Part shown: positions 1 to 51,561 of the stretch, one piece after another
How positions within the stretch are numbered: position 1 is the stretch's first letter
Layout: each line of letters begins with the position of its first letter
Source: Propionibacterium sp.
GTDB taxonomy: Bacteria > Actinomycetota > Actinomycetes > Propionibacteriales > Propionibacteriaceae
NCBI GenBank assembly: GCA_012838755.1
Contig: DUOQ01000286.1
Coordinates: 1-59,543 of the forward strand
Length of the DNA stretch: 59,543 bases
Direction of reading: 5' to 3'
Position numbers and translations under genes: made by a program
The notes under the pieces: generated by a model
The model's database searches: none
Told to the model about the DNA's origin: nothing
What the model saw: the letters and a program-made list of their open reading frames with translations, nothing else

Positions 1-132
1 GGCTCCCAACGGCCGATTCTCGGGGTCGGGCTCGTCAGCTATTCATGCCGCAGAGGTGCCGTGGTGCTTACGCAGCCAACGCATACGCAGTAGACTGAAG
101 GTACGAGAATCGGGTACCTCCCATTTGATTGT
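1..132 (-). mobile_element. Non-coding end of an inserted element, probably the left end of an IS110-family IS with a bridge-RNA-like region; continues beyond the window edge
   Basis: The ABC ATPase sequence stops abruptly after GACGAGCCGA (D-E-P). The 132 bp are ~58% GC (77/132), well below the flanks. The minus strand starts ACAATCAAATGGGAGG, forms hairpins and contains target-matching segments at 29-36 and 6-14. No transposase is visible in the window. Confidence 0.7.
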
Positions 133-694
133 TCGGCTCGTCGAGGACGAGCACCTCGGGGTCGGCCATCAGGGCCAGCGCCACGTCGAGGCGGCGGCGC
201 TCGCCGCCGGACAGCTTGCTGGTCTCGACGTCGGCGCGGCGGGCCAGGTCGACGGCCTCGAGCACGTCGGCGACCGCGATCGGGCGGGAGAGGGTGCCGT
301 GCCACATCCGGGCCATCTCGGCCACGGTGAGGGAGGACGGGAATCCGGAGGCCTGCAGCACCACGCCGGTGCGGTGCCGGACGAGGTGGCGCTCGGCGAC
401 CGGGTCGTGGCCCAGCACGCGGATCTCACCGGCGGCCGGACGAGCCAGCCCCTCGATGAGTTCGACCGTCGAGGTCTTGCCGGCACCGTTGGTGCCCAGC
501 AGGGCGAACAGCTCGCCGCGGCGGACGGTCAGGTCGATCCCGCGGACGGCCTCGAAGGACGCGGTCGGGGTGCGGCCTCCGGTCAGGGGGTTGCGCCGGG
601 TCGCCGTGGTGTAGGTGCGGCGCACGCCGGACAGGGTGATGGCCGCGTCGGCGGCGACCGCCGGGGTGCTGGGCTGGAGCGCTGTCGTCGTCAT
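68..694 (-). pseudogene. ABC transporter ATP-binding protein interrupted at Walker B (native part 133-694), read through into a foreign tail ending YALAA*
   Basis: Walker A GTNGAGKT, signature LSGGE and Walker B VLVLDEP are present. Unrelated NNQMGGTRFSYLQSTAYALAA follows; D-loop and H-loop are missing. Confidence 0.9.
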
Positions 695-749
695 GCATCC
701 AGACTCGCCCCGGATCGCCCCCGCCCCCAGTGCGTTGCCTCACCACCTG

Positions 750-769
750 CCCGTGACATCTGTCACGGG
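750..769. promoter_or_regulatory. Palindromic operator CCCGTGACA-TC-TGTCACGGG between the divergent ABC ATPase and aldehyde dehydrogenase genes
   Basis: Perfect 9-bp inverted repeat with a 2-bp spacer in a short divergent intergenic region. Confidence 0.55.
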
Positions 770-789
770 TGGCCTCCTACAGTGGAGGC

Positions 790-2355
790 ATGGCAGCCGT
801 GCACACCGATGTCCCCCGCCTCGTCGCGCCCGACCGGGTCGCCGACCTCGTCGCGCTCGTCACCGCGTCCGGTGGCGAGGTGGCCGAGACCGTGTCGCCG
901 TTGGACGGGTCGACGTTGGCCCGGATCCCGCAGAGCTCGCTCGTCGACGTCGACGGCGCCTTCGCCCGCGCGCGGGCGGCGCAGCCCGTCTGGGCCGCGC
1001 TCGGGGCGTCCGAGCGTGGACGCCGCCTGCTGGAGTTCCACGACCTCCTGCTGGCCGAGCAGGCGCAACTGGTCGACCTCATCATCACCGAGACCGGGAA
1101 GTCGCGACGCGACGCCACTGACGAGGTGTTCCACGCGGCCATGACCGCGCGCTACTACGGCGTGCATGCCGAGCGGTTCCTGCGCCGCGAGCGCCGGCTG
1201 GGGGCGATCCCGGTGCTGACGCGGGTCGACGTGAACCACGTGCCCAAGGGCGTGGTCGGCGTCATCTCGCCCTGGAACTACCCCCTGACCATGGGCTTCT
1301 CCGACGGTGTGGCCGCCTTGGCGGCCGGCAACACGGTGGTCGCCAAGCCCGACGCGCAGACCATGCTCACCGCCCTGGCCGCGCTCGAGGTGCTGCGCCG
1401 GGCGGGCGTCCCCGACGACGTGTGGCAGGTCGTCGCCGGGCCGGGGGGCGAGATCGGCACCGCGCTGGTCGAGCGCGCCGACCACATCACGTTCACCGGC
1501 TCGACCGCCACCGGCCGCAAGGTCGCCGCGGGGGCCGCGGAGCGCCTCATCAGCGCGTCGCTGGAGCTGGGTGGCAAGAACCCCATGGTCGTCCTCGAGG
1601 ACGCCGACCTCGACGCGGCCGTCGACGGCGCGATCCGCGGGTGCTTCGGCAACGCCGGGCAGTTGTGCGTGTCGTTCGAGCGCCTGTACGTGGCGCGGCC
1701 GGTGTACCACGCGTTCCGGTCCCGGTTCGTGGACGCCGTACGCGCCCTCGACCTGACCGTCGGCCTCGACTGGTCGTGTGACGTCGGCACCCTGACCAGC
1801 CCCGCCCAACTGGAGAAGGTGTCGGCCCACGTCGAGGACGCCCGCGCGAAGGGCGCCGTGGTGCTCGTGGGCGGGCACCCGCGCGAGGACCTCGCCCCGT
1901 GGTGTTACGCCCCGACCGTCCTTGAGGGCGTCACCGAATCCATGGACCTGTACCGCAACGAGACCTTCGGCCCGGTCGTGGCGCTATACCCGTTCGACAC
2001 CGACGACGAGGCGGTCGAACTGGCCAACGACTCCGTCTACGGGCTCAACGCCTCGGTCTGGAGCCGCGACGGGCACCGGGCCCGCGCGCTGGCGTCCCGG
2101 ATCAGGTCGGGCTCGGTCAACGTCAACGAGGCGCTCGCCGCGTCATTCGGCTCGCTGTCGGCCCCGATGGGCGGGTTCGGCGACTCGGGGCTTGGACGCC
2201 GCCAGGGCCCCGAGGGCCTGCTGCGGTTCACCGAGGTGCAGACGGTCGCGAGCCAGCGGGGGATGGGGGTGGGTGCCCCGGCGGGGGTGTCCCGGGAGAA
2301 GTTCGCCGCGGTGATGACCAGCGCGCTGAAGGTGATGCGGGCCCTGCGCCTCTGA
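790..2355 (+). CDS. NAD(P)-dependent aldehyde dehydrogenase, succinate-semialdehyde dehydrogenase-like
   Basis: ISPWNYP, FTGSTATG, LELGGKNP, catalytic NAGQLCVS, ETFGPV; GGAGG RBS before ATG 790. Confidence 0.9.
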   Translation: MAAVHTDVPRLVAPDRVADLVALVTASGGEVAETVSPLDGSTLARIPQSSLVDVDGAFARARAAQPVWAALGASERGRRLLEFHDLLLAEQAQLVDLIITETGKSRRDATDEVFHAAMTARYYGVHAERFLRRERRLGAIPVLTRVDVNHVPKGVVGVISPWNYPLTMGFSDGVAALAAGNTVVAKPDAQTMLTALAALEVLRRAGVPDDVWQVVAGPGGEIGTALVERADHITFTGSTATGRKVAAGAAERLISASLELGGKNPMVVLEDADLDAAVDGAIRGCFGNAGQLCVSFERLYVARPVYHAFRSRFVDAVRALDLTVGLDWSCDVGTLTSPAQLEKVSAHVEDARAKGAVVLVGGHPREDLAPWCYAPTVLEGVTESMDLYRNETFGPVVALYPFDTDDEAVELANDSVYGLNASVWSRDGHRARALASRIRSGSVNVNEALAASFGSLSAPMGGFGDSGLGRRQGPEGLLRFTEVQTVASQRGMGVGAPAGVSREKFAAVMTSALKVMRALRL

Positions 2356-3406: not shown

Positions 3407-3541
3407 TCAGTCCGCGAACGTGCTGGTGTCGGTCACGTGGCGGTAGCGGACCTTCGCGCCGACCACGTCGTCATGGGCCCGGGTGATCTGGTCGCCGGCG
3501 ATGACCTCGCGCAGGGGGCTTCTCCTCTGGGCGTGTTGCAT
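3407..3541 (-). pseudogene. C-terminal remnant of a Zn/NADP-dependent alcohol dehydrogenase (AdhC/CAD-like)
   Basis: Translates to ..EVIAGDQITRAHDDVVGAKVRYRHVTDTSTFAD*, resembling the family C-terminus (EVI..DQINEAY..V....VRYRFVID). Confidence 0.6.
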
Positions 3542-3599
3542 CTCTGAGTGACGACTATGCCCCCTGGGAGGCACAAGGCGCACTCAGATTTGTCGCACG
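3532..3599. repeat. REP/REPIN-like inverted pair (TCTGAGTGACGA ... CGCACTCAGATTTGTCGCACG)
   Basis: Same unit and similar spacer as 7890-7957; overlaps the kinase stop codon. Confidence 0.8.
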
Positions 3600-5062
3600 G
3601 GGGCCAGTGGCACCCGCACGGTGAACTCGGTGTGGCCGGGGCGCGACCGCACGTCGACGTGGCCACCGTGGGCGGCGACGACGGCGGCCACGATCGCCAG
3701 GCCCAGGCCCGTCGACGGGACTCCGCCACCGGCCCGGGACCGGCTGGCGTCGGCGCGGGTGAACCGTTCGAACACGCGGTCGGCGACCTCCGGCGGGATG
3801 CCCGGGCCGTCGTCGGAGACCCGCACCACGGCCCAGCCCTGCTCGGCGGCCAGCGACGTGGTGACGCGCGTCCCGGCGGGGGTGTGCGTGCGCGCGTTGG
3901 CGAGCAGGTTCGCAACGACCTGGGTCAGGCGGTGCCGGTCGGCGAGGGCCACGACCTCGGCGTCCGGTAGCGAGAGCGCCCACGCGTGGTCGGGCCCGGC
4001 GGCGCGGGCGTCGGAGACGGCGTCCGCCACGAGGGTGCTCAGCGGCGTCGGGGCGATCTCCAGCGCCGGGCCGGAGTCGAGCCGGGCGAGCAGGAGCAGG
4101 TCCTCGACGAGGTGCGACATGCGCTCGGACTCCGACTCGATCCGCTCCAGGGCGTGCGCGGTCGTCGCGGGCACGTCGGGGCGTTCCCGGCGGGTGAGTT
4201 CGGCGTACCCCCGGATGGCGGCCAGCGGGTTGCGCAGCTCGTGCGAGGCGTCCGCGACGAACCGGCGCAGCTTGGTCTCGGAGCCCTCCCGCGCGCCCAA
4301 CGCCCCCTCGACATGGTCGAGCATGCGGTTGAACGCGATCCCGACCTGGCCGACCTCCGAGCGCGGGTCGGTGTCCTCGGCGGGGAAGCGCACGGGCACG
4401 TCCACCGCGCCGGACCCCAGCGGCAGCGCCGACACCTGGTGGGCGGTCGTCGCGAGCCGGGCGAGGGGGCGCAAGTTGCGCTCGACCACGGTCCGGGCGG
4501 CCAGGAAGGCGATGATGATCGCCATCAGCGTCAGCACCACGGCGGCGACCATGATCGAGGCCATGGACGCCGTGAGTCCGGCCAACGGCAGGCCGACCAC
4601 CATCACCTGCGACCCCTGGGCGATGCCCACGATGCGGTAGGGGCCCAGGCTCGGGAGGGCCCGGGTCTCGGGGCGTCCCGTCGGCACGACCCGCTCGAGC
4701 TCGGCGGCGACCTGCTCGCCCACCACGTTGCGGTCGTGCTCGACCTGGACGATCCCGCCCTGGCCCTGCCAGTAGAACAGCAGCCCCTGTGCCAGGCCGG
4801 GCCCGCCGCGTCCGGGGGACATGCCCTGGCCGCGGCCCTCGCCACGCGTCTGGGTGGCGCTCGCGAGCAGTTGCTCGTCGAGCTGGTCCTGCAGGATGCG
4901 GTGCATCGTCAGGGCGGTCAACCCCGACAGCAGCACCGCGATCACCGCGACCAGCGCGGTGGTGGACAGGATGAGGCGGCGGCTGAGGGTCCCCGCCCCC
5001 AGCGGCTCCGGGCGGGGGTGGGACGCCGCGGGCGCGGGCACCACGGGGCCGGGACCGGTCAT
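3584..5062 (-). CDS. HAMP-domain sensor histidine kinase (PhoR/TcrY-like)
   Basis: Two TM segments, FVADASHELRNPL H-box, NLLANA, DDGPGI, GLGLAIV. Confidence 0.95.
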   Translation of the reverse strand: MTGPGPVVPAPAASHPRPEPLGAGTLSRRLILSTTALVAVIAVLLSGLTALTMHRILQDQLDEQLLASATQTRGEGRGQGMSPGRGGPGLAQGLLFYWQGQGGIVQVEHDRNVVGEQVAAELERVVPTGRPETRALPSLGPYRIVGIAQGSQVMVVGLPLAGLTASMASIMVAAVVLTLMAIIIAFLAARTVVERNLRPLARLATTAHQVSALPLGSGAVDVPVRFPAEDTDPRSEVGQVGIAFNRMLDHVEGALGAREGSETKLRRFVADASHELRNPLAAIRGYAELTRRERPDVPATTAHALERIESESERMSHLVEDLLLLARLDSGPALEIAPTPLSTLVADAVSDARAAGPDHAWALSLPDAEVVALADRHRLTQVVANLLANARTHTPAGTRVTTSLAAEQGWAVVRVSDDGPGIPPEVADRVFERFTRADASRSRAGGGVPSTGLGLAIVAAVVAAHGGHVDVRSRPGHTEFTVRVPLAPVRQI

Positions 5063-7875: not shown

Positions 7876-7990
7876 CGACTCGTCTGCGGCGTGCGACAAA
7901 TCTGAGTGACGAACATGCCCCTTGAGGCCGCGAAGACGCACTCAGATGTGTCGCACGGCTCGGAGCTTGCGCACTCAGATCTGCCACACG
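7856..7990. repeat. Nested REP/REPIN-like cluster: two forward copies (7856-7878, 7890-7912) and two inverted copies (7937-7957, 7970-7990) of CGTGCGACAAATCTGAGTG
   Basis: Directly visible; lies between convergent genes and overlaps the metB stop. Confidence 0.85.
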
Positions 7991-13008: not shown

Positions 13009-13947
13009 TCACTTCACCTTCGGCATCGGGACGGCCTTGTCGCCGGAGATGGTCTCCCAGGGGACCTCGCCGGGCAGGTAGCTGTTGAACTCCTCGATGA
13101 GCTTGGCCTGGTACTCGCCCTCGAATGTGCCGTCGAGGAACTTGCCCAGCGCCTCGTCCTTGAAGCGGGCCCACGAGTACTTCTCGTTGCCCGGCAGGAT
13201 CGGGTAGTACAGGCACTCGGCCTTGGCGGCAGCGTCGCGGTCACCCGGGGCGTCACCGATCAGCATGATCTTGTCGGCGTCGTACTTGCCCTTCGCCGCG
13301 TACTGGACGTGCTCGGCCTTGGAGCCCATCTCCTGGCCGGCGATGACCTTCACGTACTTGGCGAGGTCATGGGCGTTCCACTCGTAGGTGAGCGCGTGCA
13401 GCGGCGTGGCCGAGACGGTTATCTGGTCCACGCCGACCTCTTGCATGGCCTCCATGGCCTCGCGGACGCCGGGGAACGGGCCACAGCCGTGCACCATGTC
13501 GGCGATGCGCTGGTTCACGTCGTCGCCCCACGCGATCATGCGGTCGACCGTCGGGGACGGGTTCTTCTCGGCGAACGCGGCCAGGCCCTTGTCGGAGAGC
13601 GGGAACTCGGAGTTGATGAAGTCGTCGAGCTCGGGGTACGGCGGGACCTTCACGCCACGTTCCTCCACCTCGACCCGGTCGCGCAGCAGGTTGAGCAGTT
13701 GGCGCAGGGCCAGCCAGCGGTTGAGGCCGCGGGTGATCGACCCGAGGTTGACGAACAGGGCCGTCTGGCGCGCCAGCGTCGAGACCGGCTGGAGGTCCCA
13801 GGCCTGGATGGAGGCGGGGGTGAAGCACTCGAGGTGCTTGATGTCCATGGCGTCCATGGCGCACCCGTCGGAGTCGATGCCGACGAAGTACTTCTCGGTC
13901 GGGACGAAGTCGACGAGCACCTGGGCGGCTTCGGGATGCTGGCTCAC
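13009..13947 (-). CDS. HAD-superfamily hydrolase
   Basis: GIDSDG motif I, VSAT, K, LIGDAPGD. Confidence 0.85.
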   Translation of the reverse strand: MSQHPEAAQVLVDFVPTEKYFVGIDSDGCAMDAMDIKHLECFTPASIQAWDLQPVSTLARQTALFVNLGSITRGLNRWLALRQLLNLLRDRVEVEERGVKVPPYPELDDFINSEFPLSDKGLAAFAEKNPSPTVDRMIAWGDDVNQRIADMVHGCGPFPGVREAMEAMQEVGVDQITVSATPLHALTYEWNAHDLAKYVKVIAGQEMGSKAEHVQYAAKGKYDADKIMLIGDAPGDRDAAAKAECLYYPILPGNEKYSWARFKDEALGKFLDGTFEGEYQAKLIEEFNSYLPGEVPWETISGDKAVPMPKVK

Positions 13948-14054
13948 TGAGGCTCTCCTTTGGCAGGCGGAAATATGGCTTCATTGTCGCCAAGGGGCCG
14001 GGACCCCGCTGGGGTTCCGTGGTATTGCCTCGGGGGGCCCGGGGGCGCGCCCGG

Positions 14055-14720
14055 TCAGAAGAGGCCGTGGACCAGCTCGACGGTGAGGGCGTCGAGGTCG
14101 TCGATGACCGCGTGCGCGCGGTCGAGCACCTCGGCGGCCGGCGGGTGGAACCGCGGCGGCACCACGACGGTGCGCATCCCCGCGGCGAGGGCCGACTTCA
14201 CGCCGTTGGTGGAGTCCTCGATCGCCACGCACGTCGTGGGGTCGACACCCAGCCGTGACGCGGCCTCCAAGAACCCGTCCGGGTGCGGCTTGCCGCGCTC
14301 GACCTCCTCGGTCGACACCACGACGCCCACCAGGTCGCGGACGCCCAGCAGGTCCAGCCCGGCCTCGATCAGTTCCGGCGGGGAGCTCGATGCCACCGCG
14401 AGCGGGGCGATCGCGGCCATGCGGCGCACGGCGTCCACGGCCCCGGGCAGCACCGGGATGCGACCGGAGCGGTAGGCGTCCGCCATGCCGTCGATGGTGC
14501 GGCGACCCGCCTCGTGGGCGGTCCCGCGCAGGCCGACGGCCTCGACGAGGTACGCCGTCCATTCGGGGGTGCTCATGCCCATCATCGCCTGCGTGGCCTC
14601 CCCCGGCCACGGGACGCCGTCGGCCTCGGCCAGGCCGCGGCGCACGACGTCCCACTCCTCCTCGGAGTCGGTGAGAGTGCCGTCCATGTCGAAGACGATC
14701 GCGTGGGGCAGGGCTTCCAT
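14055..14720 (-). CDS. HAD-family phosphatase (subfamily IA)
   Basis: FDMDGTL, ASSS, GKPHPD, IEDSTNG. Confidence 0.92.
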   Translation of the reverse strand: MEALPHAIVFDMDGTLTDSEEEWDVVRRGLAEADGVPWPGEATQAMMGMSTPEWTAYLVEAVGLRGTAHEAGRRTIDGMADAYRSGRIPVLPGAVDAVRRMAAIAPLAVASSSPPELIEAGLDLLGVRDLVGVVVSTEEVERGKPHPDGFLEAASRLGVDPTTCVAIEDSTNGVKSALAAGMRTVVVPPRFHPPAAEVLDRAHAVIDDLDALTVELVHGLF

Positions 14721-14730
14721 GGACGCCAGC

Positions 14731-15408
14731 CTAGGACAGCCGCCAGTCGATGGGGGCGGCCCCCTGGGCCTCGAGGGCGGCGTTGGCCCGGGAGAAGGGC
14801 CGCGAGCCGAAGAAGCCCGAGCGGGCCGACAGGGGGGAGGGGTGCGCCGACGCGATGACGGGCACCTGTCCCAGGCGCGGGGTGAGGGACTGGGCGTCGC
14901 GTCCCCACAGGATCGCCACGAGCGGGCCGCCCCGTTCGACGAGCGCGTCGATGGCCCGGTCGGTGACCACCTCCCAGCCCTTGCCGCGGTGGGACGCCGG
15001 CGCCCCCGGTCGAACGGTCAGGCAGCGGTTGAGCAGCAGGACGCCCCGCTCGAACCAGGCGCTGAGGTCGCCGTGCTCGGCCGGGGGGATGCCCAGGTCG
15101 GTGGACACCTCGGCGTAGATGTTCCGCAGGGAGCGGGGGATCGGCCGGACCTCCCCGGCCACCGAGAACGACAGCCCGACCGCGTGGCCCGGGGTGGGGT
15201 AGGGGTCCTGCCCGATGATCAGGACGCGGACGTCGGCGAGCGGCCGGGTGAAGGCGCGCAGCACGTTCTCCCCGGCGGGCAGGTAGGACCGGCCAGCGGC
15301 GACCTCCGCGCGGAGGAACGCGCCCATCGTGGACACCTGGTCCGCGACGGGGGCCAGGGCCTCGGCCCAGTCGGGGGCGACGAGTTCGGCGAGTGGGCGA
15401 GCGGTCAC
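14731..15408 (-). CDS. ung: Uracil-DNA glycosylase
   Basis: GQDPYP, GVLLLN, HPSPLS. Confidence 0.96.
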
Positions 15409-15461
15409 GCAGATCAGGCTAGCCCGGCAGTAGGCTGTGCCCCGCCCGGAAGGAGCACCCC

Positions 15462-16649
15462 GTGCCGTTGATCCCCACCCTCCGCCGTCTGCTGGGGCCT
15501 GAACCCACCCCTCGGCCCGCCGAGCCGGTGGTCGTCCAGGTCCCCGTCCCCGAGCAGGACCGTCGGGCCGACCTCGAGCCCGACATCCCGCGCGGCCTGA
15601 CCGTCGCCGCCGGCTACGCCTGGCGGCTGGCAGCCCTCGCCGTGGGCGTGTACGGGCTCTACTGGCTCCTGTCGTACTTCAGCCAGATCACGGTCCCGGT
15701 CGGGATCGCGATCCTCCTCGCCGCCATGCTGTACCCCCTGACCCAGATCCTGCGGCGGCTGAAGTGGCCGCCCGCGCTGGCTGCGATCACGGCGCTGTTC
15801 GTGCTGGTCCTGGTGGTCGTCGGCCTGCTGGGCTTCGTCGGGCAGCAGGTCGCCGCCGAGTGGCCCGAACTGCTCGAGCAGTCGCGGGAGGGGTTCCAGG
15901 CGCTGGTGGCCTGGCTGGGCACGCTGCCGTTCGGCATCGACGACGCCCGCCTCAACGAGTGGATCGCGCAGGGCACCGCGTGGCTGCAGACCCAGGCGTC
16001 GGTGCTGGCGGGCGCCGCCGCGAGCTTCGGTGCCGCCTTCGGCAGCTTCTTCGCCGGGTTGGCCACCGCTCTCGTGGCCGCCTTCTTCTTCGCCTACCAG
16101 GGCCGACAGATCTTCGCCGGCTCGGTCAACGTGCTCGTCCCGCGCCACTACCGCACCTCGGTCGACTCCGCGGCCCTGAGGGGTTGGACGTCCCTGGTCG
16201 CCTACATGCGCTCGGCCGTGATCGTCGCCGCCGTGGACGCCTCCGGCGTCGCCCTGGCCGCGTTCATCCTGCAGGTGCCGCTGGTCGCGGCGCTGTTCGC
16301 GCTGACGTTCTTCCTGTCGTTCATCCCGATCGTGGGTGCCACCCTCGCGGGTGCCGTCGCCGTCGCGCTGGCCCTGGTCAGCCACGGCTGGGTGACGGCG
16401 CTGATCATGCTGGGAGCGGTCATCGTGGTCATGCAGTTGGAGAGCACCTTCCTCCAGCCGCTGGTCATGGGCAAGGCGGTCGACCTGCACCCGCTCGCGG
16501 TGCTGCTCGGCATCACCGCCGGCGCGATCATCTCGGGCATCCTGGGCGCGCTCGTCGCGATCCCGGTGCTGGCCTTCGGCGTCGCCTTCGTGCGCGCGCT
16601 GCGCAACCCGCAATCCTCATCGGACGCTTCGCCGCACACCCCGGCCTGA
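15462..16649 (+). CDS. AI-2E family transporter
   Basis: Multi-TM; [21 protein letters not shown]. Confidence 0.9.
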
Positions 16650-50115: not shown

Positions 50116-50229
50116 GGCGCGACACTCACCGATGTCACTCGGGAGACGCGTGAGGAAGCCGCTCAGATGTGACTAACCCGCGTGTCGGGGCGGGCGAGGC
50201 CGCGAAGCCCAGCAGATCCGCCAGCGACG

Positions 50230-50266
50230 TGTGGACAACGGTCAGCGCCGGCGCGGGTTGTCCACA
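50230..50266. promoter_or_regulatory. Two inverted DnaA-box sequences TGTGGACAA (50230-50238) and TTGTCCACA (50258-50266)
   Basis: Exact match to the high-GC actinobacterial DnaA box TTGTCCACA. Confidence 0.6.
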
Positions 50267-50317
50267 GGTGGTGATCCGGGTGACCGGAATCGAGGACACG
50301 TGCCGACAACTCAGGGC

Positions 50318-51226
50318 ATGGAAGAAGTTCTCGATCTGGCCCACCGACAGGGGTACGTGACCACGGCCCAAGCGGCCAACCTCGGCGTCGGGCGCATGTC
50401 CCTGCACCGTCTCGTGGGCGCGGGGGTGTTCCTCCACACCGCGCAGGGCGTCTACGTCCCGCGCGACGACAGCACCCGCGAGGGACGCCACGCGGCGGTC
50501 ACGCGCGCGATCCTCGATGCCGACCCGTGGTCGGTCGCGAGCCACCACTCGGCCTTGGTCCTGCACGGCATCAACCTGTACGGCGTCCCGTTCGACCAAG
50601 TCCAGGTCGCCGATCCGCGGTGCAGCAGTCGCAGCCACCGATCGCTGCACCGCCACGTCCTGCGCGATGGCGACCCCGTCGTCACGATCGGCGAGCACAG
50701 GGCCATCGGCCTCCCCCTGGCCCTGTGCCAGACGGCGAGCCGGTGGGGCATGGTGGCCGGCCTCGTCTCCATGGACCACGCGCTCCGCTTGGGCGAGGTG
50801 GCCAAGGATGACCTCCAGTCCGTGATCGACTCCGGACGCCTCAGGCGCGGCATCCGAGCCGCCCGGCGGGCCGCGGCCCTGGCGGACGGACGGGCCGAGT
50901 CGCCGGGGGAGTCGCGCCTGCGTGCCATCGTCCACGGTGGGTCCTTCGACTACGACCTCCAGGCGAACGTGGGTGGACCGGGCTCGGGATACGTCGCAGA
51001 CCTCCTCATCGATGGACGCGTCGTGCTCGAGTTCGACGGCGAGTTGAAGTACGACGGGCCGGAGGGCAGGAAGGCCATCGTCGCCGAGAAGCGTCGTGAG
51101 GACTGGATTCGGTCCCGGGGATACGGATTCATGCGCGTCATGTGGCCCGAACTCGACTACCCGGCCACGGTCCAGCGCGTGCTCCACGGGCACGTGCTGG
51201 CCACGCGTGCAGCTCGTGCCGCCTGA
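50318..51226 (+). CDS. AbiEi-like wHTH + Vsr/DUF559-like PD-(D/E)XK nuclease domain protein
   Basis: QGYVTTAQA..G..GVY N-terminus; ASH.SA; AESPGESRLR; ADL..VVLEFDG..KY; EKRRED. Confidence 0.8.
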   Translation: MEEVLDLAHRQGYVTTAQAANLGVGRMSLHRLVGAGVFLHTAQGVYVPRDDSTREGRHAAVTRAILDADPWSVASHHSALVLHGINLYGVPFDQVQVADPRCSSRSHRSLHRHVLRDGDPVVTIGEHRAIGLPLALCQTASRWGMVAGLVSMDHALRLGEVAKDDLQSVIDSGRLRRGIRAARRAAALADGRAESPGESRLRAIVHGGSFDYDLQANVGGPGSGYVADLLIDGRVVLEFDGELKYDGPEGRKAIVAEKRREDWIRSRGYGFMRVMWPELDYPATVQRVLHGHVLATRAARAA

Positions 51227-51561
51227 CGTGGTGACGACTCCGGCCTGACGTTGGTCGGGGCTGGGTGCCCCACGCGCACCCACCCCCAGCCTCCCGACAC
51301 GCGGGTTCGTCACATCTGAGTGGCTTCCTCACGCGCGTCTGGCGTGACATCGGTGAGTGTCGGCGCGGCCCGACCGCGCACCATCCCCCAGAGGTTGCCC
51401 CGAGTATTTCCGCAACTCCTCCCTTGCCAATATGGGATCCTGGATGAGCGCCTGACTAGGGTGAATGTGGGGGCGGGCGCAAAATGGCGCTTGTCTGATG
51501 AGTTCCCTAGACTGGCCCGGAGTTGGGCGCCGCGTGGTGCCCGCAGGAGGGGTGTGATTCG

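Follow-up and report, generated by a model that had tools for sequence, protein, structure and literature searches.

A serine-recombinase element whose attachment arm adds a putative SsrA-like degron to the host ABC ATPase that it truncates

Several described systems share features with the locus reported here, and the statements on them draw on the available portions of the cited reports. In the integration-dependent immunity of mycobacteriophage BPs and its relatives, as here, an ssrA-like C-terminal tag lies just past an attachment site and is joined or separated by site-specific recombination; there the tag is carried by the phage's own repressor and is removed by integration (PMC4557955). 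In ORBIT degron plasmids, a serine integrase likewise joins a gene to a plasmid in which an ssrA tag sits just downstream of attP and is read in frame through the att linker, although these plasmids are engineered, and they enter an intact gene ahead of its stop codon, at an attB placed there (PMC13228577). Gene-disrupting large serine recombinases have in common with our case the Resolvase and Recombinase domains, a dinucleotide core, insertion into coding sequence and many targets per cluster (PMC10083194). ABC_tran was not enriched among recombinase targets in that survey (31/1069 vs 25/908), a comparison that covers part of its rows, the others of which could include the family described below (PMC10083194). 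Finally, tmRNA (SsrA) tagging with degradation by ClpXP involves the same C-terminal ending on an incomplete protein (PMC7652416, PMC3613350). ClpX recognises the terminal Ala-Ala with lesser contributions from Leu at -3 and Tyr at -5, and GFP-YALAA is degraded while a GFP-LAA tag is too short (PMC7652416). In a mycobacterium, an LAA tag reduces LacZ levels (PMC3613350). The available portion of a further report, PMC4701971, holds nothing relevant.

The split ATPase gene and the inserted element

The window analysed is a stretch of 59,543 nucleotides from a Propionibacterium sp. genome (GCA_012838755.1, contig DUOQ01000286.1, positions 1 to 59,543). An open reading frame at 694..68 (-) encodes an ABC ATPase (PF00005 match) that is cut at Walker B. 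The frame reads across a junction into element DNA, with the translation ...VLVLDEPNNQMGGTRFSYLQSTAYALAA-stop, and ends STAYALAA-stop (C-terminal end DEPNNQMGGTRFSYLQSTAYALAA-stop), confirming the in-frame tail on a truncated ATPase that the initial annotation had described. The 5' part of the host gene, 74-83% identical in DNA to its orthologues, occupies 140..694 (-) and comprises Walker A, the signature motif and Walker B as far as the Asp codon at 142-140; the encoded fragment retains Walker A and the signature motif and lacks everything beyond D-E-P. Because the orthologues in 5/5 fetched relatives are intact, reading on as DEPTTGLDPES, and because the lost C-terminal half is found on another contig of the same genome (C205, from position 123 on), we conclude that the host gene has been split by an insertion. 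In one sequencing run (X4) the contigs branch at the junction, as would be seen with filled and empty alleles or with two strains. Window 1-900 shows no consensus promoter or terminator.

The left junction (attL) has as its core a GA dinucleotide at 138..139 (-), which supplies the first two bases of the Glu codon. From there the attachment arm of the element continues in frame over 68..137 (-), completing E-P and adding 21 residues up to YALAA and the stop codon (68..85 (-)). Within the arm lies a sub-terminal inverted repeat at 115..125 (-), partnered by C205:100-110. This 11-nt pattern was searched over 401 genomes, a search that is informative for the own genome only, where it occurs exactly twice, once per junction, each copy 12 nt from the central GA. 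A DNA-level motif behind the Q-S-T codons, at 90..97 (-), is probably a protein-binding site. The element interior beyond the stop (1..67 (-)) is not conserved, and the contig (C212 in this genome) ends at window position 1.

A search of the genome collection returned 20 related recombinase loci (73-90% identity). In 18/20 of these, an ABC ATPase gene is interrupted at the same Glu codon and its C-terminal half adjoins the recombinase; of the two exceptions, L064 lies outside any ABC gene and L063 is truncated at the end of its contig. The targets at the 18 loci are diverse ABC ATPases, entered within the D-E-P codons of Walker B in one frame and one orientation, so that the codon-phased target proposed earlier is upheld. 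At the 18 right junctions, the bases preceding GA are those of the element; the base that follows it differs from one host gene to another, even among near-identical elements. Since element and host bases sort at GA in this way, the crossover is most likely there (window 139-138) and not at 132/133, where the initial annotation had placed the junction; five more bases are common to element and target. The arms flanking the dinucleotide core are symmetric, with a repeat 12 nt to each side. At the right junctions (C205:84-124, and upstream of the recombinase in L058-L077) the element also gives hydrophobic residues and D or A before E-P. These residues rebuild a Walker B-like string on the C-terminal half, with no conserved start codon seen, and the string is probably a result of attP resembling attB.

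The element encodes a large serine recombinase with Resolvase and Recombinase domains adjoining the attachment site. Its open reading frame begins 43 nt inside the C205 junction (start codon to core) and carries on in contig C225. The two Pfam families are the only ones matched, and the absence of DUF4368 places the enzyme outside the DUF4368 multi-targeting clade of large serine recombinases. Cargo on C225 includes a type IV coupling protein (above cut-off), a MerR regulator and a weak SSB match; relaxase and secretion-system genes were not seen on the linked part of the element, the remaining part being unlinked. A contig of run X1, which may be the source of this DNA, spans C225 from position 98 to its end and extends 2,179 nt beyond. 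Outside the window start, contigs of runs X1 and X3 continue for 7.1 and 5.5 kb, respectively; no link was established between C225 and window position 1. With its large serine recombinase and at least 9.5 kb of cargo, and with relatives of ~23-48 kb (six cases with both ends on one contig), this is a serine-recombinase integrative element and not an insertion sequence, the small transposase-only kind of element for which it had been taken.

No second copy was found in the own genome. There was no real DNA match in 60 relatives, plasmids or phages, viral scans were empty, and all six matches from a metagenome scan (6/6) were attributable to chance. No recombinase exceeded 36% identity in 400 class-level genomes and the best among plasmids was 33.5%, so the family is rare in the collections searched.

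At window 5-37, immediately within the element end, there is a near duplicate of the target's left flank; it is without conservation in relatives. An IS110 bridge-RNA reading, built on this flank copy and a seeming right guide within the same interval, was rejected, as neither is kept in relatives and the enzyme is a serine recombinase. The genome does have two partial IS110-family transposases, at the ends of contigs C99 and C192 (L025, L026), which are unrelated to the element. Elsewhere in the window there are two families of ~70-nt repeats (50120-50189 with 51293-51362, and 3530-3600 with 7888-7958), which have 20 and 14 BLAST hits in the genome, respectively; the first pair flanks, in inverted arrangement, a gene with an AbiEi_4 domain (50231-51226).

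Conservation of the tail among related elements

Left junctions of the related elements were sought from the recombinase, using walks along contigs and junction patterns that exclude the tag. They were located in 15/20 genomes (16 junctions) and were not found in G420, G425, G430, G436 and G437 (5/20 genomes), nor in G1005. In a recombinase tree of 26 rows, a clade of 11 rows (support 100/99) unites the own element, G419 and nine Brevibacterium genomes. The left junction is known in 10/11 genomes of this clade, the own included, and 9/10 of them end in frame in [Y/F]xLAA-stop: YALAA in the own element and G434, YGLAA in G438, and FKLAA in six near-identical elements. In 5/9 relatives within the clade, the left junction is on another contig than the recombinase, and the two were paired by host-gene fit. 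The tenth junction, from the closest relative G419, retains QSTAYAVAA-stop, shifted out of frame by two nucleotides where eight G occur in a row, and was counted as a miss; the start of the recombinase is frameshifted in this assembly too, indicating either assembly error or decay.

Across five nucleotide lineages, the numbers of variable columns at codon positions 1, 2 and 3 of the ten codons from Q to the stop are 2, 5 and 7 of 10, and after the stop 15/15 columns vary. Pairwise identity is 17-27/30 in the tag block vs 5-11/30 in the following 30 nt. The edge of the conserved module thus appears to lie at the stop codon, where the fall in identity may partly reflect exchange of cargo. The stop codon itself is TAA, TAG or TGA depending on the lineage. 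The spacing is 45 or 48 in the in-frame tagged ends, a 3-nt difference, with a 3-nt insertion in one lineage, and 43 in the untagged ends (6/6 measured). A hand count over the last three codons and the stop gives six silent changes and one L-to-V, for which P is roughly 0.004 if 30% of changes are silent, the lineages being few and related by ancestry. The ending is also rare: among the 63,691 stop-terminated segments of at least eight residues in the six frames of the own genome, 23 end LAA and two end [YF]xLAA, these two being the element tail and the host tmRNA tag, ADNNRADFALAA. Conservation of the tag and its frame with synonymous variation had been set beforehand as the test of the initial proposal, and the tail passed it, with 9/10 tagged-clade junctions in frame, silent changes, three stop codons and a 3-nt indel. 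The tag is a real feature, maintained by selection within one clade of this rare family of serine-recombinase elements. Separately, identical recombinases were seen with different tails (YALAA in L073 and L114 of G434 vs FKLAA in L070-L072 and L074), which suggests that the far end is swapped between elements while a tag is kept.

Two neighbouring clades with the same target are untagged (0/10 junctions). The nearest, from six genomes of which five are Solirubrobacterales or Solirubrobacteraceae, has recombinases 73-75% identical to that of the own element, and 7/7 of its left junctions end DEPRMRLGGI-stop; the one host tmRNA checked encodes a YALAA tag. A sister clade (47-50% identity) targets Walker B as well, and the 3/3 left junctions found carry long untagged tails. 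The idea that every insertion would put the tag in frame therefore holds within one clade (9/10) and fails in these two related clades, and the tag is dispensable for the lifestyle of the element. In the nearest untagged clade (L125, L127, L131, L138, L139, L141, L149) the stop is fixed inside the inverted repeat, and the 7-residue tail ending LGGI could be a different non-polar C-terminal signal, or a mere stop. The three sister-clade elements with a known left end each have an intact ABC-F gene (~600 aa) near that end (L168:18134-19945, L185:16202-17980, L203 near 13800-15650), and two of the three have broken a host ABC-F gene; the copy in the element may be a spare of the favoured target and so an alternative to tagging.

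Protein database searches, which used tagged queries and so over-count tags, returned 39 ATPases that bear the tail signature. Of these, 28 end LAA, six LAE (two tails) and two LPA, two run on to SAGV and one is cut, such that 10/38 complete tails are without LAA. Of 13 distinct complete tails, nine end [YF]xLAA, and new lineages include QSTDFALAA and SGYHLAA. The two separate LAE tails come from Corynebacterium records (P0121, P0124, P0127-P0130); the change is expected to weaken recognition by ClpX and may reflect decay or tuning.

These comparisons bear on two readings in which the peptide is not a degron. Selection might have favoured the tail as a brief read-through that stops cleanly, ending translation before the element interior for example, with LAA serving another role. 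It is consistent with this that the nearest untagged clade also fixes an early stop, seven residues past E-P (7/7 junctions), and that the LAE and LPA variants retain length and stop. A stop alone, however, leaves unexplained a fixed aromatic-x-L-A-A that shows silent changes and is found at the end of so few segments (2/63,691), and we regard this reading as improbable. Alternatively, conservation could act on the DNA, at an accessory site used by the recombinase or by a directionality factor, with the peptide as a by-product. Untagged elements keep both the inverted repeat and the motif behind Q-S-T, and on this basis there is constraint at the DNA level on the first part of the tail. The last five codons behave otherwise, varying mostly at silent positions and using three stop codons, and they are not kept in the clade that shares the target and has a 73-75% identical recombinase; a DNA site as the whole explanation is therefore quite improbable.

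A putative degron and its possible role

On sequence grounds the tail resembles an SsrA degron and is best described as a putative one. It has a free C-terminal Ala-Ala with Leu at -3 and an aromatic residue at -5 (YALAA), and residues 189-208 have pLDDT <50 in a structure model, so the tail is predicted to be unstructured. The positions conserved across the tagged clade (aromatic at -5, L at -3 and AA, with -4 free) are those that ClpX reads. The host encodes clpX (contig C5, above the family cut-off), and the tmRNA tags end FALAA or YALAA in 6/6 genomes examined.

A hairpin placing the stop codon in a loop (TGC-GTAA-GCA), earlier thought to mimic tmRNA, is present in the predicted fold, yet 151/200 shuffles fold as well and 0/4 homologous ends stand out (28 to 180 of 200 shuffles as good); the 135-nt element end folds like its shuffles (z 0.07). 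Descent of the DNA from ssrA fares no better, in that 809/1000 shuffles align with the host gene as well as the segment does, and there was no tmRNA call, Rfam match or other RNA family at the element end. A tmRNA gene or remnant was accordingly rejected as an annotation of the segment, which is without a tRNA-like domain, structure or DNA likeness to ssrA. The related proposal, in which the segment derives from a tmRNA gene at a former host site and is a remnant that now has no role, can point to peptide endings close to the host tags (TDFKLAA and TDFALAA vs RTDFALAA). Against it, beyond the searches and alignment above, the L-A-A codons differ from those of the host ssrA and a dead remnant would not keep frame; this proposal is largely refuted already and we give it almost no credence. 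In another genome (L160, G432), ARAGORN makes additional permuted tmRNA calls that overlap the real gene, and Rfam finds a short partial match immediately upstream, a pattern as expected of a tmRNA end duplicated by an integrated element.

The attachment site also invites a reading after phage BPs, a real precedent (PMC4557955), in which an element gene running across the site in the excised circle ends in the tag, and the tagging of a host protein is incidental. In the own genome, indeed, no stop interrupts this frame in any of the 40 codons upstream of the core on C205. The frame is, however, antisense to the recombinase gene, its open stretch in tagged-clade relatives is 12, 33, 53 or 193 codons long (L067 stops 12 codons up and has no start codon), and no conserved ORF crosses the site (16/18 loci tested). 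We consider a spanning element gene very unlikely.

Tagging of the host protein is the reading that we consider probable: a serine-recombinase element inserts in Walker B, and the [Y/F]xLAA tail from its arm likely serves as a ClpXP tag that would clear the half-made ATPase and so likely lower the cost of insertion. The element enters ABC ATPase genes at a fixed codon position in Walker B, and the host promoter would go on producing the fragment. The attachment arm appends to this fragment an in-frame [Y/F]xLAA-stop tail that is likely a ClpXP degradation tag, recognition by ClpX being inferred from studies of this ending in E. coli and mycobacteria. An ABC ATPase fragment without the region beyond D-E-P could misfold or occupy docking sites on the permease. 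Its clearance would spare the host a misfolded or permease-blocking subunit, with a likely reduction in the cost of insertion. Direct support for dominant-negative truncated ABC domains was not found in the literature searched.

A broader version of this reading, which we hold in even balance, is that the arm module constitutes a natural gene-trap degron. The element could enter any of the many ABC ATPase genes of a genome, and each disruption would become a clean null, with the poisoned fragment delivered to ClpXP, and excision would restore the transporter free of leftover dead subunits; untagged relatives would deal with the same problem by stopping at once or by bringing a spare ABC-F gene. 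Mobile elements inserted within genes are known to restore the gene, to splice out or to excise. If the proposal is true, tag-driven destruction of the broken product adds another means of making insertion less costly, and would recommend a screen of all gene-disrupting integrases for hidden in-frame tails. The tagged, untagged and LAE variants are ready for comparison as a natural test of the toxicity of half an ABC ATPase, and the recombinase recognises a single protein motif, in frame, in many paralogous genes.

Comparison with known systems

No description of a natural element that tags the host protein broken by it was found in the literature searched, which covered few subscription journals. 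Unlike in phage BPs, no conserved element gene lies across the site here, and integration adds the tag to a host protein. Unlike the ORBIT plasmids, this is a natural element that uses a native motif as its target and truncates the gene. In comparison with the gene-disrupting recombinases, as far as the available portion of that survey describes them (PMC10083194), the enzyme has no DUF4368 and its target is a protein motif common to paralogues, entered in one frame and orientation; no tags were noted in that portion of the survey. Unlike in tmRNA tagging, the tag is hard-coded in the DNA and needs neither a stalled ribosome nor tmRNA, and the segment has no DNA likeness to ssrA. The locus thus appears to combine parts that are each known into a behaviour that we have not found described.
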